Shown: positions 6,213 through 29,151 of the stretch, one piece after another | Layout of the letters: each line of letters starts with the position of its first letter | Position numbering within the stretch: position 1 is the stretch's first letter | Source: a virus | Taxonomy: Duplodnaviria; Caudoviricetes | Virus record (IMG/VR): IMGVR_UViG_3300046717_000225 | Location: 15,320-79,319 of that record | Length of the DNA: 64,000 nt | Direction: 5' to 3' (one strand) | Position numbers and translations under genes: made by a program | The notes under the pieces: model-generated | What the model was told of the DNA's origin: nothing | The model's database searches: none | The model's input: the letters and a program-made list of their open reading frames with translations, nothing else

Positions 6213-6250
6213 TTTAGTTAAACCATACCCTGCCTGGTCCTACGCGAACC
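6213..6250 (-). promoter_or_regulatory. sigmaB-type promoter with overlapping TTTAGNTAAA operator-like palindrome
   Basis: GGTTC-N15-GGGTAT followed by TTTAACTAAA (6222-6213). Confidence 0.65.
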
Positions 6251-10037: not shown

Positions 10038-10044
10038 GTGTCCC

Positions 10045-10897: not shown

Positions 10898-10933
10898 CCG
10901 TTCCTCCTTGGTCGGTGGTCGGGGTCGTGTTGA

Positions 10934-10963
10934 GGGTATACCCCGACTGACACAGGGTATACC
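10934..10963. promoter_or_regulatory. divergent sigmaB-like promoters
   Basis: GGTAT-N15-GGGTAT on both strands (plus 10935-10960; minus 10963-10938). Confidence 0.55.
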
Positions 10964-10992
10964 TTGATGTACCCGACCTACAGGAGAAGAAA

Positions 10993-11175
10993 ATGGAGCG
11001 GGAGTACATCACCGTGGAGGAGGCGGCGGAGCTGGCCGGGGTCAAGGTCATCACCGTCCGCAGCTGGTACAGGAAGAACAAGATCACCAAGTACCTGGTC
11101 CGGGGGCGGCTCGTCCGCCTCGACCGGGCCGAGGTGGAGCAGTACAACCGGCCCAAGGCAGGGGCGGACGCATGA
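10993..11175 (+). CDS. small HTH DNA-binding protein (excisionase/MerR-like, HTH_17)
   Basis: YITVEEAAELAGVKVITVRSW...RLVRLDRAEVE. Confidence 0.8.
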   Translation: MEREYITVEEAAELAGVKVITVRSWYRKNKITKYLVRGRLVRLDRAEVEQYNRPKAGADA

Positions 11176-11414
11176 ACCCGGCCCAGAAGAAGGAGCAGGA
11201 CGAGGTCACGGAGCACGAGCTGTTCCGGTTCCTCGGCGGGGACGTGCTCGCCCGGAGAATCACCGGGGCCCTGGTCCGGTGGGGCTGTATCGACACCGTG
11301 GAACAGCTGCGCGAGGAGTACGGCCTGTACGGGCCCGACGGCCTGAACGACATCCGCCTGATCGGCGGGAAGGCCATCGACCGGATCGCGGAGAAGCTGG
11401 GGGCCCGTACGTGA
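11172..11414 (+). CDS. RNA polymerase alpha-CTD-like (HhH) protein
   Basis: RITGALVRWGCIDTVEQL...LNDIRLIGGKAIDRIAEKL resembles RxxNxLxxxGIxTvxxL...LxxixNxGxKsxxEI. Confidence 0.5.
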   Translation: MNPAQKKEQDEVTEHELFRFLGGDVLARRITGALVRWGCIDTVEQLREEYGLYGPDGLNDIRLIGGKAIDRIAEKLGART

Positions 11415-11887
11415 GCCCGATCAAGGCCATCCCGGTCCGGGCGTACGGCTGTCACTTCAGGTCCACGCTCGAATACCGCTGGGCAACCTTCTTCACGGCC
11501 GCCGGCTTCGACTGGGAGTACGAGCCGGAGGGCGCGGCCCTGGACGCCGGGAACTACCTGTGCGACTTCCGGATCACCGGGCCGAACGGGGTCCGTGTCT
11601 GGGTCGAGGTGAAGCCGAAGCTGGAAGTGGACCAGCCGGATGACCCGCGCTGGGCGGAGCTGGCCGCGAAGAGCGGCATGATGCTCTTCACCGTCCGGGG
11701 CATGCACCGGATCCACGACCGGTGTGAGAGCGCCCACAGCGCCCGTGTGTGGATGCCCGACGGGACGGTGGCGGACGTGCACCGGCTCTGGCAGGGGAAA
11801 CAGTACGAGGCCGCCTGGAACGCGGCGAGCGAGGCCCGTCCGGACAGGCCGGGCAAAGGACCAAGGAGAAGGAGGGGGAAGAGGTGA
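11411..11887 (+). CDS. PD-(D/E)XK nuclease, paralog 1
   Basis: IKAIP...FRSTLEYRWATFF...WEYEPEG...YLCDF...VEVK. Confidence 0.75.
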   Translation: MSPIKAIPVRAYGCHFRSTLEYRWATFFTAAGFDWEYEPEGAALDAGNYLCDFRITGPNGVRVWVEVKPKLEVDQPDDPRWAELAAKSGMMLFTVRGMHRIHDRCESAHSARVWMPDGTVADVHRLWQGKQYEAAWNAASEARPDRPGKGPRRRRGKR

Positions 11888-12621
11888 CCATCAAGGCCAT
11901 CGAGACCCGGTACGCGGGGTGCAGGTTCCGGTCCCGGCTGGAGGCGCGCTGGGCCGTGTTCTTCGACTCTCTCGGGGTCGCCTGGGAGTACGAGAAGGAG
12001 GGGTTCGAGACTCCGGATGGCGGGTACCTTCCGGACTTCTGGCTGCCCAACGGGGGAGGCTGGTGGGAGATCAAGGGGGAAGCTCCTTCCGAGCACGACC
12101 TCAACCGGTGCCGCTGGGTCCCTGGCCTGTGTGTCCTTGTAGGGGACATCCCTCGGGACATTGAAAGCCCGGACACGATCCAATGGCTCATGTACGGCTC
12201 CTGCTCAGACTGTGAACACGTGGGGCCTTGCTTCTGCGGGCATGGGAGCGTCTTCTGCCGGTGTGCTCCGGGACAGGAGGCGAAACGCTGGTTCACTGCG
12301 AGCTGGGACGAGTACTGGCCGTTCGGGGACAACCCTCGGCGGGTCTCCGACCAAGAGGCCCTGAACAGGGCCAGGTCTGCCCGGTTCGAGCATGGGGAGT
12401 CCGGAGCCCCTAAGGCTCAGCCCCCCAAGCGGGCTGCACCCCTGCACACGCCAACCGATAACCCGTTCAAGCCCCGGGGTGTGCTAGGTGAGCCCGAGGG
12501 GACGGAGCCCTGCTGCTCACGCTACCCATTTGGCTGTGACCACATCTGGTGCCCCCGCTGCAATGACTGGGGCAAGGACACCGGGTCCGGCTGCTCCAAG
12601 CATGCCAACCCGTCCTGGTAG
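11884..12621 (+). CDS. PD-(D/E)XK nuclease, paralog 2, with Cys-rich inserts
   Basis: IKAIE...FRSRLEARWAVFF...WEYEKEG...YLPDFW...WEIK...ARSARFEHGE. Confidence 0.75.
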   Translation: MTIKAIETRYAGCRFRSRLEARWAVFFDSLGVAWEYEKEGFETPDGGYLPDFWLPNGGGWWEIKGEAPSEHDLNRCRWVPGLCVLVGDIPRDIESPDTIQWLMYGSCSDCEHVGPCFCGHGSVFCRCAPGQEAKRWFTASWDEYWPFGDNPRRVSDQEALNRARSARFEHGESGAPKAQPPKRAAPLHTPTDNPFKPRGVLGEPEGTEPCCSRYPFGCDHIWCPRCNDWGKDTGSGCSKHANPSW

Positions 12622-12637
12622 ACCAAGGAGCCTGCGC

Positions 12638-15600
12638 ATGACCATGGAAATGGCTCCGGCCGACCTGCTGCCCGGACACGCTCGTGAGCTGGAGGAGAGC
12701 TGTATCGCGCCGCAGGTACGGGACCGGCGCCGGTACGAGACCCTGTACGACACGGAGGAGAGCCGGGCCCGGCTCAAGGAGCTGCGTATCCCCCGCTGGG
12801 CCTGGCGGGACCCGATGGCGTTCCCGGGCCTTCTCATGCCCATGTACCGGGTGACGGGAGAGGAAATCGGGCACCAGTTCAAGCCCGCTCTGCCGCAGGA
12901 GGCCCCCGGGGGAAAGCTCCAGAAGTATGCGAGCCAGACCGGTGTGCCCAACCGGCTGGACGTGCCGCCGGCGGTCGCGGACGACGTACGTGACCCGAGC
13001 AGTCCCCTCTGGATCACCGAGGGTATCAAGAAAGGGGACTGCCTGGCCTCCCTCGGCAAGGCCGTGATCACCCTGACCGGGGTGTTCAACTGGCGGTCCA
13101 AGATGGGCACGCTCGGAGACTGGGAGGACATCCCGCTCCGGGGCCGCACGACGGTCATCTGCTTCGACTCAGACGCCCGGGACAACCGGAACGTCCTGGG
13201 GGCGATGCAGAGGCTCGGCCGCTGGCTGGAGAGCAAGGGTGCGGCCGTCCGGTACCTGATCGTGCCGGGCGAGGTGGAGGGTACCGAAGTCAAGGGCGTG
13301 GACGATTTCTTCCACGCGGGCGGGACGCTCGAAGCCCTCGGCCAGGCCAGCATGGACCAGCTGCCCAACGAGGCCCGGGACGCGACCTTCACGGACAGGG
13401 TGCTGGCCGACACGGTGTGCTCGGAGGAGCTGGACGGCCGGTTCAGGTGGGCGTCCGGCCGGGGCTGGATGCAGTGGACGGGCAAGGTCTGGCGCGAGGC
13501 CACTGAGGTGACCGTCACGGAGACGATCAGCCGGTGGGCCCTGGAGCAGTACCACCAGGCCGTGGACCAGCAGCACAACGGCACGGGGAGGGACCTGGGC
13601 TCCGTTGTGGAGGGCTGGCGCGGGATGCTGAGCGGGAGCCGGGTGGGGGCGGTTCTCCGGCTGGCCAAGGGCGTCCTGGAGTGTGACGCGGAGGCGTTCG
13701 ACCGGGACCCGGACCTGATGAACTGCCCCAACGGAATCGTGGACCTGCGGACGGGGACACTCACGCCGAACGACCCCGACCTGCTGATGACGAAGATCAC
13801 GGGGGCGGAGTTCGTCAAGAACGCTGAGCACCCCGACTGGGCCAAGGCCCTGGAGGCCCTGCCGGACGACGTGGTGGACTGGTTCCAGCTACGGGTCGGA
13901 CAGGCATTGACAGGGCACATGACGCCGGACGACACGGTCGTCATCTGTCAGGGCGGGGGAGAGAACGGCAAGAGCACAGTGTACGACGGGCTGGCGCTGG
14001 CAGCCGGGAAGTACCACGTCCAGGTGAGCGACCGGGCGATGATGGGCGGCGCGACGGACAACCACCCGACGGAGATCATGGATCTGATGGGGGCCCGGTA
14101 CGCCGTTCTCGAAGAGACCCCCGAGGCCCGCCGGCTGGACACCAACCGGCTCAAGAAACTGACCGGGACCCGGGAGATCACCGGACGGCGCATCCGGCAG
14201 GACCCGGTCACCTTCGAGGCGACGCACACCATCTTCATCAACTCCAACCACAAGCCCGTCGTGGACGAGACGGATCACGGCACCTGGAGGCGGCTGGCTC
14301 TGCTGGCGTGGCCCTACACGTTCAGGAAGCCCGGACAGGCGCTCCACGGGGCCAACGACCGTCCCGGGGACCCGACCCTGCGCGACCGCATCAAGCTCGA
14401 TCCCCAGGTCCAGGAGGCTGCGCTGGCGTGGATGGCGGCCGGGGCACGGCGCTGGTACGAGCTGGAGAAGATCATGCCCGAGCAGCCTGTCCGTGTGCAG
14501 GCCGACACCCTCGCGTGGCGTAAGACGGCCGACCTGATCCTCGCCTTCGCCACGGAGGTCCTGGAGTTCGACCGGGACAGCTTCATTGCCTCCACGGAGC
14601 TACGGAGCGTGTTCAACGACTGGCTCCGGGAGAAAGGGGCGAAGGAGTGGGGGGAGAAGACTTTCAGTGCCCGTTTCGGAGGGCACGACGCGGTCACGCA
14701 GCGAGGCGTGGAGTACAAGATCGTACGTAACGGTCCGGGGCTCAGCACAAAAGCCCTTAATCCCCCGTCCGGGAAGACTCTACGCGTATGGGCTGGAATA
14801 CGCTTTTCGGGCCTACCCCCGTGCGACCGGGGTAATTCGGGTGAATCGGGCCCACCCCAGGTCAGCGGACCCACCCAAGATCACGTTACGCCTGTTACGC
14901 CAGATCCTGTAACCCCCCTAGAAGTCACCCACGCGAGTGTTATACCTGCGACGCGTAACAGGCGTAACACGATCTTGGATGAGTACGGTCCGGACCCGTT
15001 CGAGCCCGAGCCGGCCGAGCCCGCACCCCCCGTCCTCAACGGCCCGGTCGCGTTCGACCTGGAGACCCCGAGTGCGAAGGAACTGTTCACGTTCCGTAGC
15101 GGAGAGCAAACGCCCTACGCCCGGCTGAACGGGGTCCTGGACGGGGACGGCAAGGAGATCATCACGACCGACCCGGCCGAGCTGGTCCGCCTCCTGACGG
15201 CCGCTCCCGCCCTGTATGCCCACAACGGCTACCGGTTCGACCTGATGGCGCTCGCGTGGCACCACGGGGCCGACTACGACGCCCTCGCCGCTAAGACGTG
15301 GGACACCTACGTGGACGAGACCGTGCTGGACCCTCCGGGCGCCAAGGGCCAGAAACCCTGGGCGACGGAGGGCTACTACGGGCTGGACAAGGCCCTGGAG
15401 CGCCGGGGCGAGCCCGGCAAGACCGATCACCTGCCCGCTCTCGCCCGTGAGTTCGCGGCCGATGGCCTGACGGGCAAGGCGGCGGAGGAGGACGGATACG
15501 GAAAAATCCCGCCGGACAACGCCCGATACAACGCCTACCTGTCCGGCGACCTGAAGGCTCAGGACCGGCTGTACCGGACCCAGCAGGCCGACCCGGACCG

Positions 15601-16930
15601 CATGGAGTACCGCCGGCGTGAGCAGCGCGTCGCCCACATCCAGAACCGGATGACGCTGTCTGGCTGGAAGGTCGACGTCCCCCTGCTCGCCCGGTGCGTC
15701 CGGGAGGAGGCCGACAAGGTCCGGGAGAGCCTGGGCTGGCTGAACGAGAACTGCGGCATCCCGCTGACGAAGTCGGTCGGCACCGGCCGGGGCAAGAACC
15801 GGACCTTCCGGGACGAGCCCGTGCTGAGCCCGCTCACGACGACCGTCGGCCGGGAGGCGGTCAAGGCCGCGTTCCGGGACCGGGGGCTGCCGTACTTCCT
15901 GGAGACCGAGAGCGGCGCGCTGGCTCTGAACAAGGACGCCCTGGGAGAGGGCAGCTACATGGTCGGCAAGGGTGCGGCCGGGAAGCTGCTGCCCGGCCTG
16001 CTGAACCCGGCGCGCATGGCCCGGCTGCCCGGGGCCGACTGGGAGGCGATAGCGGAGATGGCCGGACACATCCGGCTCGTCACCACCGCCGTGCAGAAGT
16101 ACCAGGAGATCCAGGGCTTCCTCCTCGGCGACCGGGTGCACGCTCACGTTGGCGAGACGCAGGGCAGCCGTCGCTGGGCCATGGTGAAGCCGAGCATCAC
16201 CAACCTGGGGAAAAGAGGCGGCAAGGTCGTGCAGCGGGCGCCATTCATCGCCGACGACGGCTGCGTGCTGATCGCCTTCGACTTCGACCAGGTGGACATG
16301 CGCGCGTTCGCGGGGCACTGCGGCGACCCGGAGTACGTCGGCATGTTCCTGCGGGAGGAGGACCCGCACTCCATGGTCGCGGACATGGTGTTCGGCAGGC
16401 ATGATGGGGACTGGCGCGAGCACGCCAAGGGCGCCGGCCACGGCTGGAACTACGGCCTCAGCGTCGGCGGCATGGTCAACCAGGGCATCGAGCGTCCCCT
16501 GGCCGAGCGGTTCGACGCCGGTATGAACGAGAACTACCCGGTGCTCTGCTCCTGGCGGACCGAGGTCCGTGCACGGGCGGCGGACGGCCAGCTCCTGGAG
16601 AACGGGTTCGGCGCCCTGCTGCGGTGCGACCCGGCCCGTGCGTACACCCAGGCTCCGGCCCAGATCGGCCAGGGCACGGCCCGGGACATCATGTGTGAGG
16701 GCCTGCTGCGCCTGCCGCAGGAGTACGTGCCGTGGCTGCGGGGCGTGGTGCACGACGAGGCCGTGTTCAATGTGCCCGAGGGCCGGGTGGAGGAGTGCGT
16801 GGAACGGGTGACGGCCGCCTTCACGATGGACCTGGCCGAGATCACGAACGGACGGTTGCACTCGGTGCCGATTGTGGCCGGGGCGTCCAGGCCGGGGCAC
16901 GACTGGGCATCTTGCTATTCCAAGGACTGA
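12638..16930 (+). CDS. primase (Toprim/DUF3854-like)-SF3 helicase-3'5' exonuclease-family A DNA polymerase fusion
   Basis: WITEGIKKGD/FDSD (Toprim), GGGENGKST (Walker A), FDLET/HNGYRFD/YLSGD (Exo I-III), DFDQVDMR, REHAKGAGHGWNYG, VHDEAV (PolA motifs A, B, C); single open frame. Confidence 0.88.
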   Translation: MTMEMAPADLLPGHARELEESCIAPQVRDRRRYETLYDTEESRARLKELRIPRWAWRDPMAFPGLLMPMYRVTGEEIGHQFKPALPQEAPGGKLQKYASQTGVPNRLDVPPAVADDVRDPSSPLWITEGIKKGDCLASLGKAVITLTGVFNWRSKMGTLGDWEDIPLRGRTTVICFDSDARDNRNVLGAMQRLGRWLESKGAAVRYLIVPGEVEGTEVKGVDDFFHAGGTLEALGQASMDQLPNEARDATFTDRVLADTVCSEELDGRFRWASGRGWMQWTGKVWREATEVTVTETISRWALEQYHQAVDQQHNGTGRDLGSVVEGWRGMLSGSRVGAVLRLAKGVLECDAEAFDRDPDLMNCPNGIVDLRTGTLTPNDPDLLMTKITGAEFVKNAEHPDWAKALEALPDDVVDWFQLRVGQALTGHMTPDDTVVICQGGGENGKSTVYDGLALAAGKYHVQVSDRAMMGGATDNHPTEIMDLMGARYAVLEETPEARRLDTNRLKKLTGTREITGRRIRQDPVTFEATHTIFINSNHKPVVDETDHGTWRRLALLAWPYTFRKPGQALHGANDRPGDPTLRDRIKLDPQVQEAALAWMAAGARRWYELEKIMPEQPVRVQADTLAWRKTADLILAFATEVLEFDRDSFIASTELRSVFNDWLREKGAKEWGEKTFSARFGGHDAVTQRGVEYKIVRNGPGLSTKALNPPSGKTLRVWAGIRFSGLPPCDRGNSGESGPPQVSGPTQDHVTPVTPDPVTPLEVTHASVIPATRNRRNTILDEYGPDPFEPEPAEPAPPVLNGPVAFDLETPSAKELFTFRSGEQTPYARLNGVLDGDGKEIITTDPAELVRLLTAAPALYAHNGYRFDLMALAWHHGADYDALAAKTWDTYVDETVLDPPGAKGQKPWATEGYYGLDKALERRGEPGKTDHLPALAREFAADGLTGKAAEEDGYGKIPPDNARYNAYLSGDLKAQDRLYRTQQADPDRMEYRRREQRVAHIQNRMTLSGWKVDVPLLARCVREEADKVRESLGWLNENCGIPLTKSVGTGRGKNRTFRDEPVLSPLTTTVGREAVKAAFRDRGLPYFLETESGALALNKDALGEGSYMVGKGAAGKLLPGLLNPARMARLPGADWEAIAEMAGHIRLVTTAVQKYQEIQGFLLGDRVHAHVGETQGSRRWAMVKPSITNLGKRGGKVVQRAPFIADDGCVLIAFDFDQVDMRAFAGHCGDPEYVGMFLREEDPHSMVADMVFGRHDGDWREHAKGAGHGWNYGLSVGGMVNQGIERPLAERFDAGMNENYPVLCSWRTEVRARAADGQLLENGFGALLRCDPARAYTQAPAQIGQGTARDIMCEGLLRLPQEYVPWLRGVVHDEAVFNVPEGRVEECVERVTAAFTMDLAEITNGRLHSVPIVAGASRPGHDWASCYSKD
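14877..14976. repeat. inverted repeat with GTTAC/GTAAC iterons (putative replication origin)
   Basis: GTTACGCCTGTTACGC (14885-14900) is the exact reverse complement of 14953-14968; flanked by AAGATC/GATCTT; locally lower GC. Confidence 0.6.
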
Positions 16931-16940
16931 GCACGGGCCC

Positions 16941-16978
16941 GGTTCGTCCGGGCCGGGACAGGGTACGATTTAACTAAA
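16941..16978 (+). promoter_or_regulatory. sigmaB-type promoter plus TTTAACTAAA operator driving the modification operon
   Basis: GGTTC-N15-GGGTAC, then TTTAACTAAA (16969-16978) and CCAAGGAGG RBS. Confidence 0.65.
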
Positions 16979-16992
16979 GGTCCAAGGAGGAT

Positions 16993-17439
16993 ATGATCAT
17001 GACCGCCGGACAGATCGTCTCGCTCGTCCTCGGTCTCGTGCTCGGCCTGCCCTTGATCGGGCTCGGTCTGCACATGGCCGTGGGCGACACGCGGCACACG
17101 CTCTGGCCCCGGGGACTGCGCTGGTTCCCGCCCGCCTGGGACAGGCTGTCCGACCGGACCGAGCGGCTCCTGTGGCCCGACCGGGACCTGTTCCCGTCCA
17201 GCCGCTACACCCGGTACCTGGAGGAACTGGACGACTCGTTCAAGTACTCGGTCAAGCTGTACGGCACCTGCCCCGAGTGGACCGGCAGGGACGATCTGCA
17301 CGGCCGCTGGATCTCTTACGGGCGGGAGACGGACACCTGCTCGTGCGGCTACGTGCGTGAGTGCGCCCTCTGGTGCGGGGACGGGCATGAGACTGGGCAG
17401 TGCCCGGACGACCATGGACGGGGCATGCGATGGGGATGA
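16993..17439 (+). CDS. membrane protein with Cys-rich C-terminus
   Basis: N-terminal hydrophobic helix; CSCG...CALWCG. Confidence 0.6.
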   Translation: MIMTAGQIVSLVLGLVLGLPLIGLGLHMAVGDTRHTLWPRGLRWFPPAWDRLSDRTERLLWPDRDLFPSSRYTRYLEELDDSFKYSVKLYGTCPEWTGRDDLHGRWISYGRETDTCSCGYVRECALWCGDGHETGQCPDDHGRGMRWG

Positions 17440-17939: not shown

Positions 17940-18112
17940 CCTGGACGGCCCGCAAGAGGCACGGCCGGTGGCACTGGGTATGCACCTGGTGCTCGCCGGC
18001 CGTTTCCGGTTCCACGGCCGCCTTCGGCCGCCTGCTCGTCAGCCTGCGGCATCATGAACGAGTGCGCCGGTGCCATCACAGGCATGTGGCCCGATCAAGG
18101 AGAGTCAAGTGA
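17936..18112 (+). CDS. small Cys/His-rich protein (58 aa)
   Basis: MTWTARKRHGRWHWVCTWCSP...HHERVRRCH; fills gap with GTGA overlaps at both ends. Confidence 0.5.
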   Translation: MTWTARKRHGRWHWVCTWCSPAVSGSTAAFGRLLVSLRHHERVRRCHHRHVARSRRVK

Positions 18113-18855
18113 CCACGGAGTACGTCGAGACCAGGATGATCCGCCTGGACGAGCTGACCCCCTTCCCGGGCAACGCCCGGCGGGGCGACCCGCACAAGCT
18201 GGCCGAGTCGCTCGAAGCCAACGGCCAGTACCGCAGCCTGATCGTGAGGCAGGCCCCCGACGGCCTGATCGTCCTCGCCGGTAACAACACCCTGCTCGCC
18301 CTGGAGGCGAAGGGCGAGACCGAGGCCCGCTGCGAGATCGTCCAGTGCGACGAGGCGACCGCCCTGCGGGTCAACCTGGTCGACAACAAGACCAACGACT
18401 CCGCCACTTACGACGACGCTGCGCGCGCGGCCCTGCTTGTGCTCCTGGACGGGGAACTGGCCGGCACCGGCTACGACGACGACGAGGCCGACACGATCAT
18501 CGCCCGGTTCGAGGAGGAGGAGATCACCCCCCTGTCCGAGCCGGCGGTCCTGGACTACAACGACGACCAGGCCGAGCGCGAGGCGCGCATCCTGAGCCAC
18601 GGCGGGGAGAACAGCCGGACCATGGAGAGCCGGGGGATCCGGGACGTCATTCTCGCGATGCCCGCTGCCGAGGCGGACGAACTCGGTCGGCTGATCATGG
18701 CCCTTCGGGCCACCTGGGGCGCGCTGCCGCAGGGAGACATCCTGCTGCGGGCGGCACGGGTGGCGTATGCGGCTCTGGAGCAGGGTGACGACCTGACCCG
18801 TGCGGACCTGGCGGCGCATGCCGACGAGCCGTACGCGCCCGAGGAGGGATCATGA
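18109..18855 (+). CDS. ParB N-terminal domain protein (DNA-modification associated)
   Basis: IRLDELTPFPGNARRG...LAESLEANGQYRSLIV...VLAGNNTLLA...NLVDNKTN. Confidence 0.8.
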   Translation: MTTEYVETRMIRLDELTPFPGNARRGDPHKLAESLEANGQYRSLIVRQAPDGLIVLAGNNTLLALEAKGETEARCEIVQCDEATALRVNLVDNKTNDSATYDDAARAALLVLLDGELAGTGYDDDEADTIIARFEEEEITPLSEPAVLDYNDDQAEREARILSHGGENSRTMESRGIRDVILAMPAAEADELGRLIMALRATWGALPQGDILLRAARVAYAALEQGDDLTRADLAAHADEPYAPEEGS

Positions 18856-18950
18856 CCGTAATGGAGGCGCTCTTCGCGGGCATGGGGATGGGCTGGGCAA
18901 TCGCGATGGTGGGGCTCTTCGTCGGGACCTGGATCGGGCGGGACGGGTGA
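18852..18950 (+). CDS. small membrane peptide (32 aa)
   Basis: MTVMEALFAGMGMGWAIAMVGLFVGTWIGRDG; ATGA/GTGA overlaps. Confidence 0.5.
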   Translation: MTVMEALFAGMGMGWAIAMVGLFVGTWIGRDG

Positions 18951-20035
18951 CCGAGCTGAAGGCGGGCATGGACTTCCGCCTCCCGGAGCACAGGAGGGAG
19001 GTTTTCCTGCGTTTCCTCCAGTGGTCGCACCAGCACAAGTCCTTCCCAGGAGGAGTGCATTACGTGCTCCCGTACCTGGCCAAGGCGCTCGAACTGGACC
19101 TTGAACAGAGGTACTGGCTGGCCTGGCTGAACGCGAACACACAGAACCCGGTGACGAGCCTGCTTCTGTTCAGGGCCGCGCCCCGGATGCAGGACCACGA
19201 GAAGGCGATCGACCTCTGGCGGACCCACTACCGGGCGCTGGACTGGGACACCGACCGCCGGTACCACAAGGCCCGGTTCGAGGACGCGGTACGCGGCTAC
19301 GTCCGGGCGGTCGACTGCTCCTGCTCCGGCCCACAACACAGGTACTTCCGGGTCGGGTACGAGTGGCAGGCCTGGTGGGACGTCGCGTTCGCCCTCCCGA
19401 CCATGGGCAGGCTCAGCACCTGGAGCTATCTGGAGTACCTGCGCATTCTGCTCGGGCCGACCGTCGTTCCCGATGCGGACACGCTGATGCTGGAGGACAT
19501 CCAGGGCAGCCGGTCGCACCGCAACGGGCTCGCGCTCGTGCTCGGCCGGGACGAGTGGATCGTGGACAAGCAGCTCGGCTCCGGCCGCACGGACGCGGTC
19601 TGCACCCCGGACGTCCTGGCCGAACTCGGGTACGAGTCGAACGCCCTGTTCCTCCAGGCACGGGAGCGCATAGGCCCGGCGGCCGACCGTCTGAGCCTTG
19701 AGAGTGCGCTGTGCACGTACAAGAGCTGGCACAAGCCGAACCGCCGGTACCCGGGCGTGTACAACGACATGCTGTACAACCGGCTGGTCTCGGCCGAGAA
19801 CCGGTGGGGCCAGCGGTTCGGGGTCATCTGGGACGCGCGTGCGGAGGCCCTGCCGGACAGGCTGCTCCTGGAGCGCTCGCCGTACGACCCGGGCCTGAGC
19901 CCGGTGAAGCAGAACTGGTACCTGGCTCATGGCCAGTGTCTGAATATGTCGGAGGAGTGGCCGTGCTTCCAGAACGACTTCGAGAAGACTGTCCAGAAGC
20001 ACGGGTTCGGGGTCCGGGCACGGCCCTGGATCTGA
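18947..20035 (+). CDS. amino acid:DNA transferase (aGPT-pyrophosphorylase clade 2-like)
   Basis: MGRLSTWSYLEYL (HhH-like), GSRSHRNGL, LESALCTYKSW, RYPGVYND motifs; context with kinase and PLP enzyme. Confidence 0.8.
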   Translation: MTELKAGMDFRLPEHRREVFLRFLQWSHQHKSFPGGVHYVLPYLAKALELDLEQRYWLAWLNANTQNPVTSLLLFRAAPRMQDHEKAIDLWRTHYRALDWDTDRRYHKARFEDAVRGYVRAVDCSCSGPQHRYFRVGYEWQAWWDVAFALPTMGRLSTWSYLEYLRILLGPTVVPDADTLMLEDIQGSRSHRNGLALVLGRDEWIVDKQLGSGRTDAVCTPDVLAELGYESNALFLQARERIGPAADRLSLESALCTYKSWHKPNRRYPGVYNDMLYNRLVSAENRWGQRFGVIWDARAEALPDRLLLERSPYDPGLSPVKQNWYLAHGQCLNMSEEWPCFQNDFEKTVQKHGFGVRARPWI

Positions 20036-20892
20036 GGAACTGGCTGAGCCCGGTCGAAGATCGTGACGGCCGTCTGTACAAGCGCGAAGATCGCTGCGCC
20101 CTGCCCTCCGGCGTCAACGGGTCCAAGCTGCGCGCCTGCGATCACCTGATCCGTCAGGGAGCTGCGGCCGGCGCGCGCCGGGTCATCTCGGCCGCTTCCG
20201 TGCTCAGCCCCCAGAGCGCCATGGCAGCCATCGTCGCCGCCCGGTACGGGCTGGGCTGCACGGTCGTGCTCGGGGGCACATCGCCCCGGACTGCCTTCAC
20301 GCACCGATCGCCCGCCCTCGCCCGGGAGTACGGCGCGCAGTTCGAGTTCGTGGGCGTCGGGTACAACCCGGTGCTCCAGGCACATGCTGAGAAGCTGGAT
20401 CGCTCGGACCCGCTGGCCTACTGGCTCCAGTACGGCATCACGACCGCACCGGACGCGAGCGCCCGGGAGGTGCGCGCCTTCCACCGGATCACAGCCGACC
20501 AGTGCGCCAACCTGCCGGAGGGCATCAAGACCCTCGTCGTCCCGTTCGGCTCGGGCAACACCGGGGCGGGCGTACTCATGGGCCTGAACCAGCACGCACC
20601 ACGTTCCCTGGAGAAGGTCGTCCTCGTCGCCATCGGACCGGACCGGCGCTCCTGGCTGCGGCACCGGTTCGAGTACATGGGCGTGAGCCTGCCCCGCTAC
20701 CGTGTCATCGACCTGCACGGCTCGGGCTACGCCGCCTACGGCGACCGCATGCCCGGTACGGCGGACGGGATCGTGCTCCACCCGACGTACGAGGGCAAGG
20801 TGGTCCGCTACCTGGACGCGAAAGCCCCGGACTGGTGGGTGCGCCGGGACGGCACGACCTGCCTCTGGATCGTAGGAGGACCGCTCAAGTGA
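19963..20892 (+). CDS. fold-type II PLP-dependent enzyme (putative modified-base decarboxylase)
   Basis: LSPVE...YKRED...NGSKLR (Schiff-base Lys), VPFGSGNTGAG, LHPTYEGK; GGAGG-N7-GTG start inside upstream gene (start uncertain). Confidence 0.8.
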   Translation: MLPERLREDCPEARVRGPGTALDLRNWLSPVEDRDGRLYKREDRCALPSGVNGSKLRACDHLIRQGAAAGARRVISAASVLSPQSAMAAIVAARYGLGCTVVLGGTSPRTAFTHRSPALAREYGAQFEFVGVGYNPVLQAHAEKLDRSDPLAYWLQYGITTAPDASAREVRAFHRITADQCANLPEGIKTLVVPFGSGNTGAGVLMGLNQHAPRSLEKVVLVAIGPDRRSWLRHRFEYMGVSLPRYRVIDLHGSGYAAYGDRMPGTADGIVLHPTYEGKVVRYLDAKAPDWWVRRDGTTCLWIVGGPLK

Positions 20893-20909
20893 CCAAGGAA
20901 GAGGAACTC

Positions 20910-21443
20910 ATGACTGAGCGTTACACACCCCAGCCCGGGGACATCGGCCTGACCACGATCTCCGGCGCCGGGGGCAAGCTCATCCGCCTCGGCCAGTGGC
21001 TCAACGGGGACGGCTGGAAGGCCCAGCAGCATGCCTTCGTCGTCACGGAGTACCGGCAGGGCCTGGACCTGAAGAATCTCCCGAACCCGCCCTGGATCGT
21101 GGAGGCGATGCCCGGCGGGGCGCAGCACGTCAAGAACTGGCACACGGACTGCGTCTATCTGCGTTGCCCGGACGAGTACCGGGACGCGGTCGCAGCTGCG
21201 GCGCGCGGGTACGTGGGTGTGCCGTACTCGTTCCTGGACTACGGCGCGCTGGCCCTGCACCGGTTCCACATCCCCACCCCGCACCTGAAGCGGTTCATCG
21301 CCGACGGGGGCCATCAGATCTGCTCCCAGCTGGCCGATCAGTCGGCAGCCGATGGCGGCTGGAACCTGTTCCAGAACACCTGGCCCGGGGACATCACTCC
21401 TGGGGACCTGGCCCGGCTGTACCGGAAGCAGGTGTACGCATGA
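20910..21443 (+). CDS. permuted papain-like (NlpC/P60, YiiX/LRAT-like) protein
   Basis: PGDIG...QHAFVV...VEAMPGG...PYSFLDY...ICSQL...ITPGDL; His precedes Cys (permuted). Confidence 0.75.
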   Translation: MTERYTPQPGDIGLTTISGAGGKLIRLGQWLNGDGWKAQQHAFVVTEYRQGLDLKNLPNPPWIVEAMPGGAQHVKNWHTDCVYLRCPDEYRDAVAAAARGYVGVPYSFLDYGALALHRFHIPTPHLKRFIADGGHQICSQLADQSAADGGWNLFQNTWPGDITPGDLARLYRKQVYA

Positions 21444-22030
21444 TCAACCACATGCTCTACATCGCGGGCCCGCCTGGCGTCGGCAAGTCGACCCTCGCCC
21501 GGGAGCTGACGGCCGGCTGGGACCGGGAGCTGATGGCGCACCACCCCGTAGTGCCCCATGTCCGTCTCCGGCACCCGGTCTCCGGCCTGAAGATCGGCCT
21601 GGAACTCGGCGTGCCCCGGCCTGCCTTCCCGGGCACGGACGCGCTCAGCATGAGCATCGGTCCGGCCGCGCTCCAGTTCCTTCTCGACCGGACGAGTGCT
21701 TTCCCCTTCGCCCTCGGAGAGGGCTCACGGCTCGCCACGCGCCCGTTCCTGGGCGGGCTGGTGGCAGCGGGCGTCCGGCTCACGTTCGTGTCTCTGAGCG
21801 CGCCACAGGAAGTCCTGGACTACCGCTGGAAGGTCCGGGGCGGGAAGCAGAACCAGAGCTGGCGCAAGGGCGCGGCCACCCGGGCGGAGCGGATGTTCGA
21901 GTGGGCGCTGCTCACGGACGGGGTCCGGACCGTCCGGTCGGAGTCCGTGGACCGTACGGACATGACCGAGATCGCCGACGAGGTCCGGGACGCGTTCCCG
22001 CTCATCGACCTGAGGGAGAGTGCAGCGTGA
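21440..22030 (+). CDS. P-loop nucleotide kinase (5-hydroxymethyluridine DNA kinase-like)
   Basis: IAGPPGVGKST, GTDALSM, GEGSRL, RGGKQNQSWRKGAAT. Confidence 0.78.
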   Translation: MINHMLYIAGPPGVGKSTLARELTAGWDRELMAHHPVVPHVRLRHPVSGLKIGLELGVPRPAFPGTDALSMSIGPAALQFLLDRTSAFPFALGEGSRLATRPFLGGLVAAGVRLTFVSLSAPQEVLDYRWKVRGGKQNQSWRKGAATRAERMFEWALLTDGVRTVRSESVDRTDMTEIADEVRDAFPLIDLRESAA

Positions 22031-22055
22031 TGCGGCTCAAGGTACGCTGACCCTT

Positions 22056-22475
22056 ATGACAAAGGTGATCTATGGTCTCGTTGACCATGAGGGCGTTACC
22101 CGGTACGTAGGGCAGTCGGGGGAGGCGTTCTCTCGGCTGGAGTACCACATATCCAGATCCTTCCGGGAACGGAAGGAGGACCGGACCCCAGCACAGCAGT
22201 GGGTCTGGGACCAGATCGTGGTCCATCGGCACGTCCCGGGGATAGATCTCCTGGAGTTTCCGGAGGATGCAGAGGCCAATGCTGCGGAGCGCCGGTGGAT
22301 AGAGCATTACGGTTATGAGCAGCTCACCAACACCTCGTACGCGGAACGCTTGGCCAAGGCACGTCCCAAGCTGAGTGCGGCCACACTGGGCCGGAAGGAC
22401 AGTGCAGCAACCAAGAAGCGCAAGAGCGAGAGTGCAAAACGAGCCTGGGAGAAGCGCCGTGCAGCCGATCGTTAG
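22056..22475 (+). mobile_element. GIY-YIG homing endonuclease with NUMOD3-like tail
   Basis: VIYGL...RYVGQS...SRLEYH...AERRWI...N; GRKDSAATKKRKSES; visibly lower GC3 than neighbours. Confidence 0.8.
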
Positions 22476-23364
22476 TCTGAGAATCAGGTCGCGCATCTCC
22501 AAGGAGGAGCTGGACCTCAAGGTCGGCAAGGTGATCGGCGACGACGCGTACAACGTCCTGCTCACCGGGCCGACCCGGGTTTATATGCCGAACGGGAAGA
22601 TCCTGTGCGTGTACCTGCCCGGGGCGCTCAAGGACCACGTGACCGAGGAGCAGTACGCGGTGCTGCACTCGCTGCGCTCGCACAAGACCGACTCCCGGGG
22701 GCAGGCCTCAGGCAGTCAAAGTGTGGTGAGAACGGGCGAGCAGCGGACGCGGAGATTCCTGCCCGTCAGCTCCAGCATCCTTGGCTCCTTCGACCCCAAT
22801 CTCACGTTCAAGTTCTGCCGCACCACGGCCTGGACCGGGCGTCACGTTCCGGAGTGGGACACGCTGCGCCCCCTGCTCCAGCAGGTCGCCGGTCACATGG
22901 AGCAGCAGGTGCCCGACCGGTACGCGGCGCAGATGGCCGAGATCGGCCGGACGCATCCGGACTGGGTCGTGCCCGGTACTCCGTTCACTACCCTCACGGT
23001 CAACAACACGTACCCGACCGGCGTGCACACCGACAAGGGCGACCTGGACGCCGGCTTCAGCACGATCGCCGTGCTGCGCCGGGGGAGCTACACCGGGGGC
23101 CGGTTCGTGTTCCCGGAGTTCCGGGTCGCGGCCGACCTCCAGGACGGGGACCTCATCCTCATGGACGCGCACCAGTGGCATGGGAACACGGCCCTGGTCT
23201 GCGCCTGCGGCGAGAAGAGGGCCAAGATGTGTGAGGCCTGCGGGGCCGAGAGGATCAGCCTGGTCTCGTACATGCGCACGGCCATGACCAGCTGCGGAAG
23301 CGAAGAGGAGGAGAACCAACGCGCCGTGGAATACCGTGAAAGGACCAAGGGAGTGATCAGGTAG
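22459..23364 (+). CDS. TET/JBP-family 2OG-Fe(II) dioxygenase
   Basis: FTTLTVN..YPTGVHTDKGD (HxD), GGRFVFPE, AHQWHGNT (distal His), RISLVSYMR (2OG-binding Arg). Confidence 0.85.
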   Translation: MQPIVSLRIRSRISKEELDLKVGKVIGDDAYNVLLTGPTRVYMPNGKILCVYLPGALKDHVTEEQYAVLHSLRSHKTDSRGQASGSQSVVRTGEQRTRRFLPVSSSILGSFDPNLTFKFCRTTAWTGRHVPEWDTLRPLLQQVAGHMEQQVPDRYAAQMAEIGRTHPDWVVPGTPFTTLTVNNTYPTGVHTDKGDLDAGFSTIAVLRRGSYTGGRFVFPEFRVAADLQDGDLILMDAHQWHGNTALVCACGEKRAKMCEACGAERISLVSYMRTAMTSCGSEEEENQRAVEYRERTKGVIR

Positions 23365-23385: not shown

Positions 23386-24015
23386 ATGGACCCGCACAGT
23401 GCCGGTGATCACGCCTCGGTCGAGGCCCGCCGCTGGAAGGCCGTCACCCTGGCCAACCGGGGCCTCACGCACAAGATGATCGCGACGGAGATGGCCGAGG
23501 AGTACCGGCGGCACAACCCCCGGCTGACCCTGGTCCAGATCGAGAGCCACGTCGGAGTGGACATCACCCGGGCGCTCAAGGACTACCGCAAACGCGCGGA
23601 TCAGGCCATCGAGGAGAAGCTGACCGCAGCCTCGCTGCGCCTCAACGAGATCCGCCGGCGCCTGTTCGCGGTCATCGTGGGCAATCATTACGTGCTGCAC
23701 TCGGGGGAGATCGTCAAGGACGGGGACGGCCGCCCCCTCCAGGACGCCGCTCCCGTGCTCGCAGCCCTGGCGCAGCTCCGCGCCCTGGAGGAGCAGCAGG
23801 CCCGGATGGAGGGCACTAACGCCCGGGAGAAGATCGACATAGCTCTCGGCCGCCGGGTGGACGAGGAGGCGATGGACGTCACAGAGGCGATCCTCGCCGC
23901 GTTCGCCGCCCTGCCCGAGCTGGAGCCTGCCCTGCGTCAGCGGGCGCTGGAAGCCGCCGGCGCCCACCTGCGTACCATCGAGGGCGAAGTCATCGCTGAC
24001 GTGGAGGAACCGTGA
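23386..24015 (+). CDS. terminase small subunit-like HTH protein
   Basis: RRWKAVTLANRGLTHKMIA (HTH)...LRLNEI...APVLAALAQL...EQQARMEG pattern of actinophage TerS-like proteins. Confidence 0.6.
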   Translation: MDPHSAGDHASVEARRWKAVTLANRGLTHKMIATEMAEEYRRHNPRLTLVQIESHVGVDITRALKDYRKRADQAIEEKLTAASLRLNEIRRRLFAVIVGNHYVLHSGEIVKDGDGRPLQDAAPVLAALAQLRALEEQQARMEGTNAREKIDIALGRRVDEEAMDVTEAILAAFAALPELEPALRQRALEAAGAHLRTIEGEVIADVEEP

Positions 24016-24860
24016 CCGTCACCCCGTACCCGCTCGGCCGTGTGCAGTACCACGACCCCCGTAACGCACAGCCGCAATACGCGGTAGCTGAGCTTCCCCG
24101 TCGCGCGCTCAAGTCCGTGGACTGGCACCGTCGTGCTCCGATCTTCGATCAGGGCCAGCTCGGGTCCTGCGTCGGCAACGCGGCCGTCGGCTGGGTCGGT
24201 ACGGACAATGTGACCCGACAGGGGCGCACGTTTGTCGACGTCAGTTCAACCACAGCCATGGCAGCCTTGACCGGGGATGCTCGCCTGGATACTGGATCCG
24301 GTCCAAAGGTATTGGCCACGGTCCCCGTGGACGAGGCACTAGCGGTCCGTGACTACGCCTTCGCCACCGGCCTGGACACCTTCAGCGGTACCTACCCGCC
24401 CGACGACACCGGTACGGACGGCCCCTCCGGCGCGAAGGCTCTGGTCAAACTGGGCCTGGCCGGGAAGTACACGCACGCGTTCTCCCTCGCCGCGCTCCAG
24501 GCCGCGCTCCAGCTCGGTCCGGTCATGTGGGGCACGGTCTGGTACAACTCGATGTTCGACCTGAACTCGTACAACCACCTCGTGGTGGACGAGAATTCGG
24601 GCGTTGCTGGCGGCCACGAGCTGCTCATCGTCGGGTGGGACACGGCCACGGACGTCTACAAGATCGCGAACTCGTGGGGAACCAGTTGGGGAGAGGCCGG
24701 GTACTGCTACGTCAACACTCCGGACCTGACCTACCTCGCGGCACAGGGCGGGGACTTCACGCAGCCGGTCGATCTCGCCGCTCCGGCCCCGTCCGTTGTC
24801 ACGGCTCAGAAGTTCTACGATCAGATCAAGGCCTCCGCCACGGCAGGAGGGCTGAAGTGA
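24012..24860 (+). CDS. papain-family (C1) cysteine protease
   Basis: DQGQLGSCVG, GGHELLIVGW, IANSWGTSWGEAGY. Confidence 0.85.
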   Translation: MTVTPYPLGRVQYHDPRNAQPQYAVAELPRRALKSVDWHRRAPIFDQGQLGSCVGNAAVGWVGTDNVTRQGRTFVDVSSTTAMAALTGDARLDTGSGPKVLATVPVDEALAVRDYAFATGLDTFSGTYPPDDTGTDGPSGAKALVKLGLAGKYTHAFSLAALQAALQLGPVMWGTVWYNSMFDLNSYNHLVVDENSGVAGGHELLIVGWDTATDVYKIANSWGTSWGEAGYCYVNTPDLTYLAAQGGDFTQPVDLAAPAPSVVTAQKFYDQIKASATAGGLK

Positions 24861-26469: not shown

Positions 26470-27519
26470 ATGGCCGCGCACAGGAAGCCGAAGGAGAAGC
26501 GCGCCCTTCTGGCGGGCGCAGTGGGGGTGAGCACAGTTGCCGTTGCCCTCACCGTGGGCAGCGGCAGTCCAGCCTCGGCCGCGAGCACGTCGACGTGGGA
26601 CAAGGTGGCCCGGTGCGAGTCGGGCAATCAGTGGAGCCGCACGTTCAGCACGGGAGTTCCTCTGGGGGGCGGACTCCAGATCAAGGACGCGACGTGGGCA
26701 GCGTACGGGGGGCTCAAGTACGCCCCTCATCCCTACCTCGCGACCAAGACGCAGCAGATCGCAGTGGCGGAGAGAGTCCTGGCGGGACAGGGAGCCCAGG
26801 CGTGGGCATGCGCGCCTCAGGCCGGACTGACGACGTCACAGGCAGCCCCTCGCCCCCTGCTTCGCAGTCAGGCAGCCCCGGCAGCTCCCCGAGCGGCAGC
26901 CCCGTCCAGCCGAGCGGCACGAGCAGTCGCCTACGCGATCAGCAAGATCAGCAGCGCCCCGTACCTGTGGGGCGGGAACGGGCCGACCCGCTTCGACTGT
27001 TCGGGCCTCACGTCCCAGGCGTGGCTGCATGCGGGAGTGCGTATCCCACGGACAGCGGTACAGCAGCTCCGGGGACTGCCACGGGTGTCCCTCGGCTCGA
27101 TCCGTCCGGGCGACCTGGTGGTCTACTCGTTCAACTCCTATGCGGATCACGTGGCGCTCTACGTGGGCTCGGGCAGGACGGTTGACACCGCCACGCACCA
27201 CGTGAACTCAGGAGTCGGCTACAGCACGCTCCACCGGGCCGGAGGGACGATCGCCGGCGTGGTGCGCCCGTACGGGTCGACGGCCCCGGCCCGGTCCGCC
27301 GCACCGCCGAAGGCGCACACGGAAGCCTCCGAAGGGGCGCAGCCCGTGGCCGCCGGTACGTACACCGTGGTCGAGGGCGACTGGCTGACGAAGATCGCCC
27401 GTGCGCACAGGACGACCTGGCACGTGATCTACAGCCTCAACCGGGACCGGATACAGGACCCGGACCTCATCTATCCCGGCCAGGTGCTGCGCATGCCCGA
27501 GGGAGCGATGACCACGTGA
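26470..27519 (+). CDS. rpf: secreted Rpf-like transglycosylase + NlpC/P60 + LysM
   Basis: Signal peptide; TWDKVARCESG..W....GGLQI...TW...QQIAVAERVLAGQG..AW..C; PYLWGG..FDCSG...HVALY; YTVVEGDWL..IA...DPDLIYPGQVL. Confidence 0.9.
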   Translation: MAAHRKPKEKRALLAGAVGVSTVAVALTVGSGSPASAASTSTWDKVARCESGNQWSRTFSTGVPLGGGLQIKDATWAAYGGLKYAPHPYLATKTQQIAVAERVLAGQGAQAWACAPQAGLTTSQAAPRPLLRSQAAPAAPRAAAPSSRAARAVAYAISKISSAPYLWGGNGPTRFDCSGLTSQAWLHAGVRIPRTAVQQLRGLPRVSLGSIRPGDLVVYSFNSYADHVALYVGSGRTVDTATHHVNSGVGYSTLHRAGGTIAGVVRPYGSTAPARSAAPPKAHTEASEGAQPVAAGTYTVVEGDWLTKIARAHRTTWHVIYSLNRDRIQDPDLIYPGQVLRMPEGAMTT

Positions 27520-27786: not shown

Positions 27787-29151
27787 ATGAGTGATCGGCA
27801 GCGCAGAGCGGGCCAGGCGGCGGAGCGTCTCCTGCTCCACGCGAGCACGCTCACCGAGCCCCGCTGGACCCCGCTCCCCTACCAGGTCCCTCCGCCCGGG
27901 GACTGGTACGGCTGGCTGCTGCTCGCCGGCCGTGGAGCCGGCAAGACCGACGCCTGCGCCAAGTACATCTCCGATCATGTCGCCGGACCGCCGTGCCTGC
28001 CCGGTCCGGTCCCCCACTGGGTCGGCATCATCGCTCCGACCCTGGGGGACGCGGCCACGAGCTGTGTCACCGGACCGTCCGGCATCCTCCGTCACAGCCC
28101 CCAGGCCAAGATGGTCAACACGATGGGCGGCACGGTCGTCCGCTGGCCCAACGGAAGCGTGGCCAAGCTCTTCGGCGCCAACACCCTGGAGGACACGGAG
28201 CGCCTGCGGTCCGGCGGTAACCGGTGCGCCGTATGGGGTGAGGAGATGGCCGCGTGGCGTTATCTGGACGAGGCCTGGGCTCAGATGCGGTTCGGCCTGC
28301 GTACCGGCCCCAGGCCGCACTGGGTGGCGAGCACGACCCCCAAGCCCCGCCCGCTCATCAAGAAGCTGGCCGCCGGGGGAGAGGCCAAGGTCGTTCTCAG
28401 CCGGGCCTCCATGTACGACAACCCCCACCTCCAGGAGCACGTCCGCCAGGCCCTGCTGGACGAGTACGAGGGCACCGACCTCGGCCGGCAGGAGCTGAAT
28501 GCCGAGCTGCTCGACGAGGACAGCAACGCCCTGTGGACGCGGTCCTCCGTGGAGGCGAGCCGTCTCGCCGTGCCGGACACGAAGCTCATCCGCGTCACGA
28601 TCGGCGTGGACCCCTCTGGCGGAGCCGGCGAGCAGGGCATCGTCGCCGTCGGCAAGGGAATGATCGTCCGGGACCATGAGGACCCCCGCAAGCGCGTCCC
28701 CCTGCCGCACGGCTACGTCCTCGGCGACCGGACCGTGCACATGCGCCCGGAGGGCTGGGGGCGGGCAGCAGTCCAGGCTGCTGTGGAGTTCGAGGCGGAC
28801 GACATCTGTGTCGAGATCAACTTCGGAGGGGACATGGCCGTCTCGACCATCCGTGCGGCAGCCGACGCCATGGGAGTCAACATTCCGATCAAGGTTGTCC
28901 GTGCTACCCGGGGCAAGCAGGTCCGTGCGCAGCCCGTGAGCGCGCTCACCGCACAGGGCCGGTTCCACATGGTGGGGGTGCACCCCGAGCTGGAGGATCA
29001 GATGTGCGTCTGGTACCCGGAGCTGGACTGGAGCCCCGACCGGCTGGACGCGATGGTCTGGCCCGCCTGGCACAACCGCATCGTCAAGATGACCATGACC
29101 GGCGGGGCTGTGAGCGGCGGCATGGAGCAGATGGCGCGCTCGATCGGGTGA
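27787..29151 (+). CDS. terL: terminase large subunit
   Basis: LLAGRGAGKT (Walker A), WGEEMA (Walker B), TTPKP, IGVDPSGG, SPDRLDAMVW nuclease motifs. Confidence 0.92.
   Translation: MSDRQRRAGQAAERLLLHASTLTEPRWTPLPYQVPPPGDWYGWLLLAGRGAGKTDACAKYISDHVAGPPCLPGPVPHWVGIIAPTLGDAATSCVTGPSGILRHSPQAKMVNTMGGTVVRWPNGSVAKLFGANTLEDTERLRSGGNRCAVWGEEMAAWRYLDEAWAQMRFGLRTGPRPHWVASTTPKPRPLIKKLAAGGEAKVVLSRASMYDNPHLQEHVRQALLDEYEGTDLGRQELNAELLDEDSNALWTRSSVEASRLAVPDTKLIRVTIGVDPSGGAGEQGIVAVGKGMIVRDHEDPRKRVPLPHGYVLGDRTVHMRPEGWGRAAVQAAVEFEADDICVEINFGGDMAVSTIRAAADAMGVNIPIKVVRATRGKQVRAQPVSALTAQGRFHMVGVHPELEDQMCVWYPELDWSPDRLDAMVWPAWHNRIVKMTMTGGAVSGGMEQMARSIG

Follow-up and report, generated by a model that had tools for sequence, protein, structure and literature searches.

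The complete viral genome recorded as IMGVR_UViG_3300046717_000225 comprises 79,319 base pairs (bp) at a G+C content of 68%; in IMG/VR it is listed as 100% complete with direct terminal repeats, and an exact 127-bp terminal repeat was confirmed here. We analysed a window consisting of its right-hand 64 kb (positions are those of the window unless stated otherwise), with genes called by frame analysis of the G+C content at third codon positions (GC3) and inspection of start codons. A tightly packed row of genes on the + strand at 18109-23364 encodes, in order, a ParB-like protein, an amino-acid:DNA transferase (AADT), a fold-type-II pyridoxal phosphate (PLP) enzyme, a protein referred to as X184, a P-loop kinase, a GIY-YIG-like endonuclease and a Tet_JBP dioxygenase. 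Judging from this gene content, the row is probably an operon for post-replicative hypermodification of thymidine, of the type that begins with a ParB-dependent 5-methylpyrimidine dioxygenase.

Neighbouring genes overlap by 4 to 79 nucleotides (nt) or are separated by gaps of less than 100 nt: the transferase and PLP genes share 79 nt, and the PLP/X184 and X184/kinase junctions share 4 nt each. No terminator-like site lies between the genes on the + strand, the sole match on that strand (22565-22578) falling inside the dioxygenase gene. A reading made earlier from the letters of the window (the original prediction) had described a largely coupled operon with six of these proteins. The coupling is as described, and all six proteins are present at the + strand positions given below, as judged by Pfam, PHROG and AlphaFold2 (AF2) evidence; the list was incomplete in that it passed over a seventh gene, that of the GIY-YIG endonuclease, between the kinase and dioxygenase genes. 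The operon belongs to a much longer rightward block, in which a gene for a 1430-aa primase-helicase-PolA fusion comes first and lysis and packaging genes come later. Its sequence gave no match in a megablast search against cultured phages.

Proteins of the operon

The dioxygenase (22459-23364, +; 301 aa) matches PF12851, the Tet_JBP family of Fe(II)/2-oxoglutarate dioxygenases, with an E-value of 9e-18 (64.5 bits against a cut-off of 34.9). Nearly all of its 1245 homologues are approximately 297 aa in length, which fixes the start at 22459; an alternative start at 22375 was rejected for this reason. The HxD...H...R motif was said in the original prediction to be intact, and H190-x-D192, H238/H241 and R265 are indeed invariant in 24 homologues, as are a Cys cluster (248/250/258/261) and C279. 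A conserved C-terminal tail of 22 residues follows C279, an arrangement that may correspond to the one at C280 of the published phage enzyme 5mYOX176. A sequence search of the PDB with the dioxygenase found nothing.

The ParB-like protein (18109-18855, +; 248 aa) is encoded 3.6 kb 5' of the dioxygenase, from a GTG start codon behind AAGGAG. It belongs to PHROG 723 (E 3.6e-36), while the Pfam family ParB_N stayed below threshold even with relaxed E-values. Its AF2 model (predicted local distance difference test [pLDDT] 76) has two domains, at residues 1-112 and 186-239, with low confidence at 140-180: the N-terminal one is a ParB/Srx nucleotide-binding domain with a GNARRG motif, the C-terminal one is helical, and a short helix and a disordered, acidic linker connect the two. 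No helix-turn-helix (HTH) DNA-binding domain is present in the model. The best Foldseek matches (probability 1.0) are Noc and ParB proteins of B. subtilis, Caulobacter and Myxococcus (6sdk, 6t1f, 7bnk).

O'Toole et al. (2026; preprint August 2025) reported that phage enzymes oxidise thymine in vivo and in vitro, and delineated a subclass whose activity depends on a neighbouring ParB-like activator; this activator combines a nucleotide-binding domain with a C-terminal domain and lacks a DNA-binding domain (PMC13229309). Because the architecture and structural matches of the ParB-like protein are as described for these activators, we provisionally assign the dioxygenase to this subclass and propose, by analogy, that the ParB-like protein is its activator. 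The original prediction had given ParB no role, which has to be amended: homologous ParB proteins have been shown to activate this subclass of thymine dioxygenases (PMC13229309). A complex prediction for the dioxygenase and the ParB-like protein scored 0.18 against a mark of 0.32; this gives no verdict and was counted neither way.

The kinase (21440-22030, +; 196 aa) is a member of the Ploopntkinase3 family (PF18751, E 1.5e-25; 90.2 bits against a cut-off of 27) with the Walker A motif GPPGVGKS, and is proposed to act as a 5-hydroxymethyluracil (5hmU) DNA kinase. It is 37% identical to the gp4 kinase of Mycobacterium phage Prince. The transferase (18947-20035, +; 362 aa) belongs to AADT clade 2, formerly aGPT-Pplase2, and matches both PF18724 (ADDT; 45.9 bits against a cut-off of 26.2) and PHROG 3271 (E 1.6e-78). 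It shares 50% identity with Prince gp3 and 45% with the 'clade 2' protein of Glutamicibacter phage Montesquieu. PDB sequence searches returned nothing for the transferase and only P-loop noise for the kinase.

The PLP enzyme (19957-20892, +; 311 aa), which begins with GTG behind GGAGGA, scores above the curated cut-off of PF00291 and falls in the NCBIfam D-Cys desulfhydrase family; its kin are D-cysteine desulfhydrase and 1-aminocyclopropane-1-carboxylate deaminase. PDB entry 4d8t was matched with an E-value of 4e-10 and with the Schiff-base Lys aligned (NGSKLR vs GGNKLRK). An enzyme of Mycobacterium phage AlanGrant is 43% identical. We infer a decarboxylase activity from the sequence, the proposed substrate being an amino acid linked to the base.

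The closest characterised relatives of the transferase and the PLP enzyme are those of Salmonella phage ViI. By BLASTP the transferase is 26.5% identical to the ViI-type serine:DNA transferase (E 3e-27), and it has no BLAST match to the glycine transferase gp51 of Pseudomonas phage M6; the PLP enzyme is 32% identical to the ViI-type gp226 orthologue (E 1e-48) and 24% identical to M6 gp52 (E 1e-3). In sequence, both enzymes are thus nearer to those of ViI than to those of M6.

X184 (20889-21443, +; 184 aa) belongs to PHROG 1128 (E 1.2e-15). It matched no Pfam family at E-values up to 5, save for one chance match, and a PDB sequence search found nothing. Its AF2 model (pLDDT 87) matches E. coli YiiX (2if6, Z 12.2 over 136 residues) and a B. 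cereus protein (3kw0, Z 11.5), with the next match at Z 6.9, and LRAT/PLAAT acyltransferases are among the structural neighbours. H48, E72 and C145 are invariant, and the His stands ahead of the Cys. The modelled fold is the permuted papain/NlpC-P60 fold of the YiiX/YaeF family (MEROPS C92), so that the label 'permuted papain-like' in the original prediction was apt. Gene 40 of Montesquieu was considered as a counterpart of X184 and rejected, as it encodes a second kinase.

Absent gene families and related loci

Absences were scanned for by profile searches of the complete genome, in which PF12851 was recovered as a positive control. There was no match to PF00303 (thymidylate synthase/hydroxymethylase), PF02511 (ThyX), PF00383 (deoxycytidylate [dCMP] deaminase), PF00145 (C5 DNA methylase) or PF04055 (radical S-adenosylmethionine [SAM] enzymes). 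A tblastn search of the complete genome with the deoxyuridylate (dUMP) hydroxymethylase and the clade-1 pyrophosphorylase of Montesquieu returned noise only. The sole methyltransferase found in the genome is of the Methyltransf_23 type and lies beside sugar genes. The lack of a dUMP hydroxymethylase and of a radical-SAM gene, noted in the original prediction for the window, therefore extends to the genome as a whole. The prediction had also named a dUMP hydroxymethylase beyond the window as a finding that would count against it; neither this enzyme (PF00303 and tblastn) nor a dCMP deaminase (PF00383) was found.

A scan of IMG/VR yielded 175 contigs with relatives of the dioxygenase. The best 80 of these, with dioxygenases 48-83% identical to the one described here, were analysed, and genes were counted in the 53 loci with at least 6.5 kb of upstream sequence. 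ParB is retained in 47/53 loci and the kinase in 44/53. A transferase of this type occurs in 21/53 and a PLP enzyme of this type in the same 21/53, neither being found without the other. X184 is present in 9/53 loci, the GIY-YIG gene in 0/53, and a hydroxymethylase within 10 kb in 0/53. This operon architecture is shared by dozens of IMG/VR contigs and is frequent in soil viromes.

The closest relative, L004, is a 79-kb contig that is approximately 89% identical; its interval between the PLP and kinase genes holds an HNH endonuclease gene and a 73-aa gene. L003, a contig of 93 kb from an assembly of Streptomyces sp., has the order ParB-transferase-PLP-kinase-dioxygenase with no intervening genes. 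In two further loci, L014 (7682-9432) and L042 (7778-9450), the transferase/PLP pair between ParB and the kinase is replaced by a divergent PF18724 transferase and a flavin adenine dinucleotide (FAD)-dependent oxidoreductase; this is the module of Pseudomonas phage PaMx11 in a form that begins with a dioxygenase. Compared with the locus described here, these modules indicate that the family has at least ViI-like and PaMx11-like flavours. L042 also encodes a ParB_N-N6_N4 methylase fusion immediately upstream.

Proposed pathway and alternatives

The reactions that follow 5hmU were elucidated by Lee et al. (2021): 5hmU in DNA is converted to 5-phosphomethyldeoxyuridine (5-PmdU, a monophosphate), then to an amino-acid adduct, which is decarboxylated by a PLP enzyme (PMC8989533). 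The same study described TET_JBP contigs without a hydroxymethylase and proposed thymine in DNA as the source of their 5hmU (PMC8989533). The gene content of the present operon, together with the absences listed above, supports the proposal, made in the original prediction, that TET/JBP oxidation of thymine on finished DNA would feed the kinase, the transferase and the PLP enzyme. In the first step, the Tet_JBP enzyme, aided by the adjacent ParB, would hydroxylate thymine in the double-stranded phage DNA to 5hmU, probably in some sequence contexts only. The Ploopntkinase3 kinase would then phosphorylate the hydroxymethyl group to give 5-PmdU; the original prediction had described the kinase step of ViI and M6 as a pyrophosphorylation, which is corrected by the monophosphate product (PMC8989533). 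The clade-2 transferase would exchange the phosphate for a free amino acid, and finally the fold-II PLP enzyme would strip the carboxylate, leaving an amine-bearing base. As the genome lacks a dUMP hydroxymethylase, no rewiring of the thymidine triphosphate pool would be needed. The phage would probably benefit in that its DNA is shielded from nucleases of the host.

The link to the amino acid most likely runs through the side chain, as it does for serine in ViI, because the PLP step needs a free alpha-amine and there is no radical-SAM isomerase to unmask one. M6 frees the alpha-amine with such an isomerase, while ViI sidesteps the need by O-linking serine (PMC8989533). As the transferase and the PLP enzyme are nearest to those of ViI, 5-(2-aminoethoxy)methyl-uracil (5-NeOmdU) is the single most likely end product, although we give it slightly less than an even chance.

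Several points weigh against the pathway as proposed. Every step is assigned by homology, and identities of 26-32% to the characterised ViI enzymes are too low for substrate specificity to be transferred. The placement of the dioxygenase in the ParB-dependent subclass draws on context and architecture. 5mYOX176 oxidised 5-methylcytosine (5mC) in vitro with comparable activity (PMC13229309), so that substrate preference cannot be told from sequence. Finally, both the ribosome-binding site and the first seven codons of the dioxygenase gene were replaced when the GIY-YIG-like gene inserted, and expression of the dioxygenase is therefore not guaranteed.

The alternative that survives best keeps the pathway but not the ViI base: another amino acid or amine would be attached, or the amine would be tailored (by acylation or amide hydrolysis) by X184 or another phage enzyme, to give a chemically new thymidine. 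The low identity of the transferase to the serine transferase leaves room for such a product, and the exchange of the PLP enzyme for an FAD oxidoreductase in sister loci points to modular chemistry. The position of X184 also speaks for it. The X184 gene is translationally coupled on both sides, it occupies the position of the radical-SAM gene in the M6 cluster (gp51-gp52-gp53-gp54), and, of the 9 related loci that have it, it keeps the PLP-X184-kinase slot in 7 with dioxygenases only 64-83% identical; a role in the pathway is argued for on these three grounds, and the LRAT/PLAAT acyltransferases among its structural neighbours fit a tailoring activity. On the other hand, X184 is missing from L003 and from 12 relatives that have the transferase, PLP enzyme and kinase, and the same slot takes homing endonucleases, such as the HNH gene in L004. 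Homologues of X184 (35-39% identical) are found in 112 Streptomyces phages and there only, and those in Samy and Karimac are surrounded by early genes or tRNA arrays, hypermodification genes being absent from the vicinity. We therefore regard X184 as an optional member of the operon, which could be an amidase/acyltransferase with a tailoring function or else an accessory protein unrelated to the pathway, and its role in the pathway as an evenly balanced question; the original prediction was right that it is a coupled member of the operon, but it may not be a pathway enzyme. Since the ViI enzymes are the nearest relatives of the transferase and the PLP enzyme alike, a product other than the ViI base is somewhat unlikely. 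A little less likely still is that the final base is an undescribed thymidine hypermodification made wholly on finished DNA, whether through a non-serine substrate of the transferase or through tailoring by X184 or by a glycosyltransferase, epimerase or methyltransferase encoded in the left arm of the genome.

A second alternative is that the operon is impaired: the GIY-YIG insertion would have uncoupled the dioxygenase from its original start, so that 5hmU would be scarce or absent and most of the DNA would carry no modification. The inserted gene (22056-22475, +; 139 aa) encodes a free-standing homing endonuclease-like protein, recognised by the motif IYGL...RYVGQS and a weak match to PF01541 (E 0.03, over 3-73 of 78 profile positions). 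Its GC3 is 0.70-0.77, compared with approximately 0.9 in its neighbours, and it was not found in L003, L004 or any of the best 80 of the 175 IMG/VR relatives. It sits at about codon 7 of the dioxygenase gene (22027-22484): the kinase stop codon is followed by the original 5' end of the dioxygenase gene, now a seven-codon remnant open reading frame (MMRLKVR-stop, 22027-22050, +), then by the endonuclease gene and then by the dioxygenase gene with a recoded N-terminus. At the same kinase/dioxygenase junction L004 reads VISIRVRSRISKEEL, without the equivalent of window positions 22031-22484. The GIY-YIG-like gene is thus a selfish insertion and stands outside the pathway. In favour of impairment, the original coding start is interrupted by the insertion, and the new start codon, a GTG, is preceded by no more than a weak GGGAG. 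Against this, the dioxygenase frame is intact, its new N-terminus retains the invariant Arg8 and Arg10, and translational coupling would be possible, as the endonuclease gene ends beyond this start; every other gene of the pathway is intact as well. We consider an impaired operon improbable.

That the dioxygenase instead acts on 5mC, with the downstream enzymes building a cytosine hypermodification, is the weakest proposal and a very remote one: although clade A/B phage TET enzymes oxidise 5mC and 5mYOX176 oxidised both 5mC and thymine in vitro (PMC13229309), the complete genome encodes no C5-methyltransferase, the ParB association and the linkage to a kinase and a transferase mark the thymine class, and the kinase and transferase families have been characterised on 5hmU only.

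Genomic surroundings and known systems

Directly 3' of the dioxygenase gene is a gene (23386-24015, +) for a conserved 209-aa protein to which no family was assigned, as it matched neither Pfam nor NCBIfam. Its neighbours in the protein atlas are unnamed viral clusters, one with a trace of HTH_23. The gene is also found 3' of the dioxygenase in L003, L004 and 17/53 loci, and the protein is possibly associated with the modification system. Between this gene and a conserved 99-aa gene lies a gene (24012-24860, +) for a papain-family cysteine protease (Peptidase_C1, E 1e-13), which is also present 3' of the dioxygenase in several more distant relatives (e.g. L029-L032 and L050). The protease was considered as a member of the pathway and rejected, being missing from the 89%-identical L004.

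The fusion protein at the start of the rightward block (12638-16930, +; 1430 aa) combines a toprim-like DUF3854 domain, D5_N, a DUF5906 helicase and a family-A DNA polymerase in one chain, and the same fusion occurs in L003 and L004. Farther downstream, a lysin-like protein with three domains (Transglycosylase-like, NlpC/P60 and LysM; 26470-27519, +) is encoded 5' of the large terminase (27787-29151). The leftward early region encodes a second, small ParB_N-like open reading frame (10045-10410, -; weak, E 9e-4) and an HNH_3 homing endonuclease (561-1019, -). In the left arm of the genome (genome positions 1-15400), outside the window, genes for an NAD-dependent sugar epimerase/dehydratase, two family-2 glycosyltransferases and the Methyltransf_23 methyltransferase lie on the - strand at 3830-4723, 4851-5396, 5438-6070 and 12065-12715. 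In L003 an epimerase gene stands two genes 3' of the dioxygenase. The targets of these sugar and methyltransferase genes could be virion proteins, the host envelope or, conceivably, the modified base.

Streptomyces or a close relative is the probable host, given the 68% G+C content, the occurrence of X184 homologues in Streptomyces phages only, the related contigs in assemblies of Streptomyces, and a PolA whose best match, at 37%, is to Streptomyces phages.

The nearest published system for the oxidation step is 5mYOX clade C1 ('clade E' in the preprint; 5mYOX176/ParB176), which was mined from IMG/VR. As in the present locus, a Tet_JBP enzyme of approximately 300 aa is encoded near a ParB without a DNA-binding domain, a C5-methyltransferase is absent, and a P-loop kinase and a transferase are linked; the C-terminal tail beyond its last conserved Cys may have a counterpart in the tail after C279. 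That study covers the oxidation step only, and a PLP enzyme and a YiiX-like gene are not mentioned in it (PMC13229309).

Downstream of 5hmU, the 5-NeOmdU pathway of ViI (kinases gp67/gp243, serine:DNA transferase gp247 and PLP decarboxylase gp226; Lee et al. 2018/2021) uses the same three enzyme families and likewise has no radical-SAM step. In ViI, however, 5-hydroxymethyldeoxyuridine is incorporated during replication by way of a dUMP hydroxymethylase, and there are a clade-1 paralogue and two kinases, whereas here 5hmU would come from the dioxygenase and ParB acting on finished DNA, with a single kinase and no clade-1 gene. By gene content, the operon is therefore ViI-like downstream of 5hmU but not a member of the ViI pathway type. 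The M6 cluster for 5-(2-aminoethyl)deoxyuridine (5-NedU; gp51 transferase, gp52 PLP enzyme, gp53 radical SAM and gp54 kinase; positions 13406-17249 of the M6 sequence) has the same order of transferase, PLP enzyme, tailoring gene and kinase, with the tailoring slot held by the radical-SAM enzyme rather than a YiiX-like protein. It differs from the present locus in its thymidylate-synthase homologue and radical-SAM isomerase, as well as in a transferase without BLAST similarity and a PLP enzyme of marginal similarity.

Comparable cassettes occur in actinophages, with transferases 45-50% and kinases 30-37% identical to those described here, and are already annotated in SEA-PHAGES records. Genes 1-4 of Prince encode a ParB, a 'thymidine hydroxylase', a transferase and a kinase; this cassette starts with ParB and a TET-like enzyme, as here, but its hydroxylase is only 25% identical (E 2.5e-4) and it has no PLP enzyme. 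The five-gene system of Rhodococcus phage Tonitrus has the same ParB and TET-like start (PMC11955845). Montesquieu has a transferase, a PLP enzyme and two kinases, with a hydroxymethylase instead of the dioxygenase. In AlanGrant, genes 1-4 (positions 1-3152 of its sequence) comprise a gene 1 (480 aa) with a ParB-like N-terminus, then a PLP enzyme annotated as 'nucleoside deaminase' and then a kinase annotated as 'adenylate kinase'; cluster-B annotations of this kind probably hide a hypermodification cassette. Outside phages, the trypanosomatid proteins JBP1/2 (base J) also begin with Fe/2-oxoglutarate hydroxylation of thymine in DNA, but they have no ParB partner, and their 5hmU is glucosylated, neither phosphorylated nor aminated.

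Our literature searches found no published product for the Prince, Tonitrus or Montesquieu cassettes, and no solved end product for any dioxygenase-started pathway. The novelty claimed in the original prediction stands to the extent that no chemically solved actinophage product was found in these searches; it was otherwise overrated, as TET_JBP contigs had already been described in 2021 and the oxidation was shown in 2025/2026. Systems of this kind have been published, experiments on homologues have established the first step, and the locus opens no new category.

The locus is a clean natural case in which five or six small proteins could convert plain thymine into an amine-bearing base wholly on finished DNA, with the nucleotide pools left as they are; it is thereby a convenient cassette for reconstitution in E. 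coli or Streptomyces. Solving one dioxygenase-started product would link the 2021 and 2026 studies, and would show whether the PLP and FAD-oxidoreductase flavours of the family give the same bases as ViI and PaMx11.

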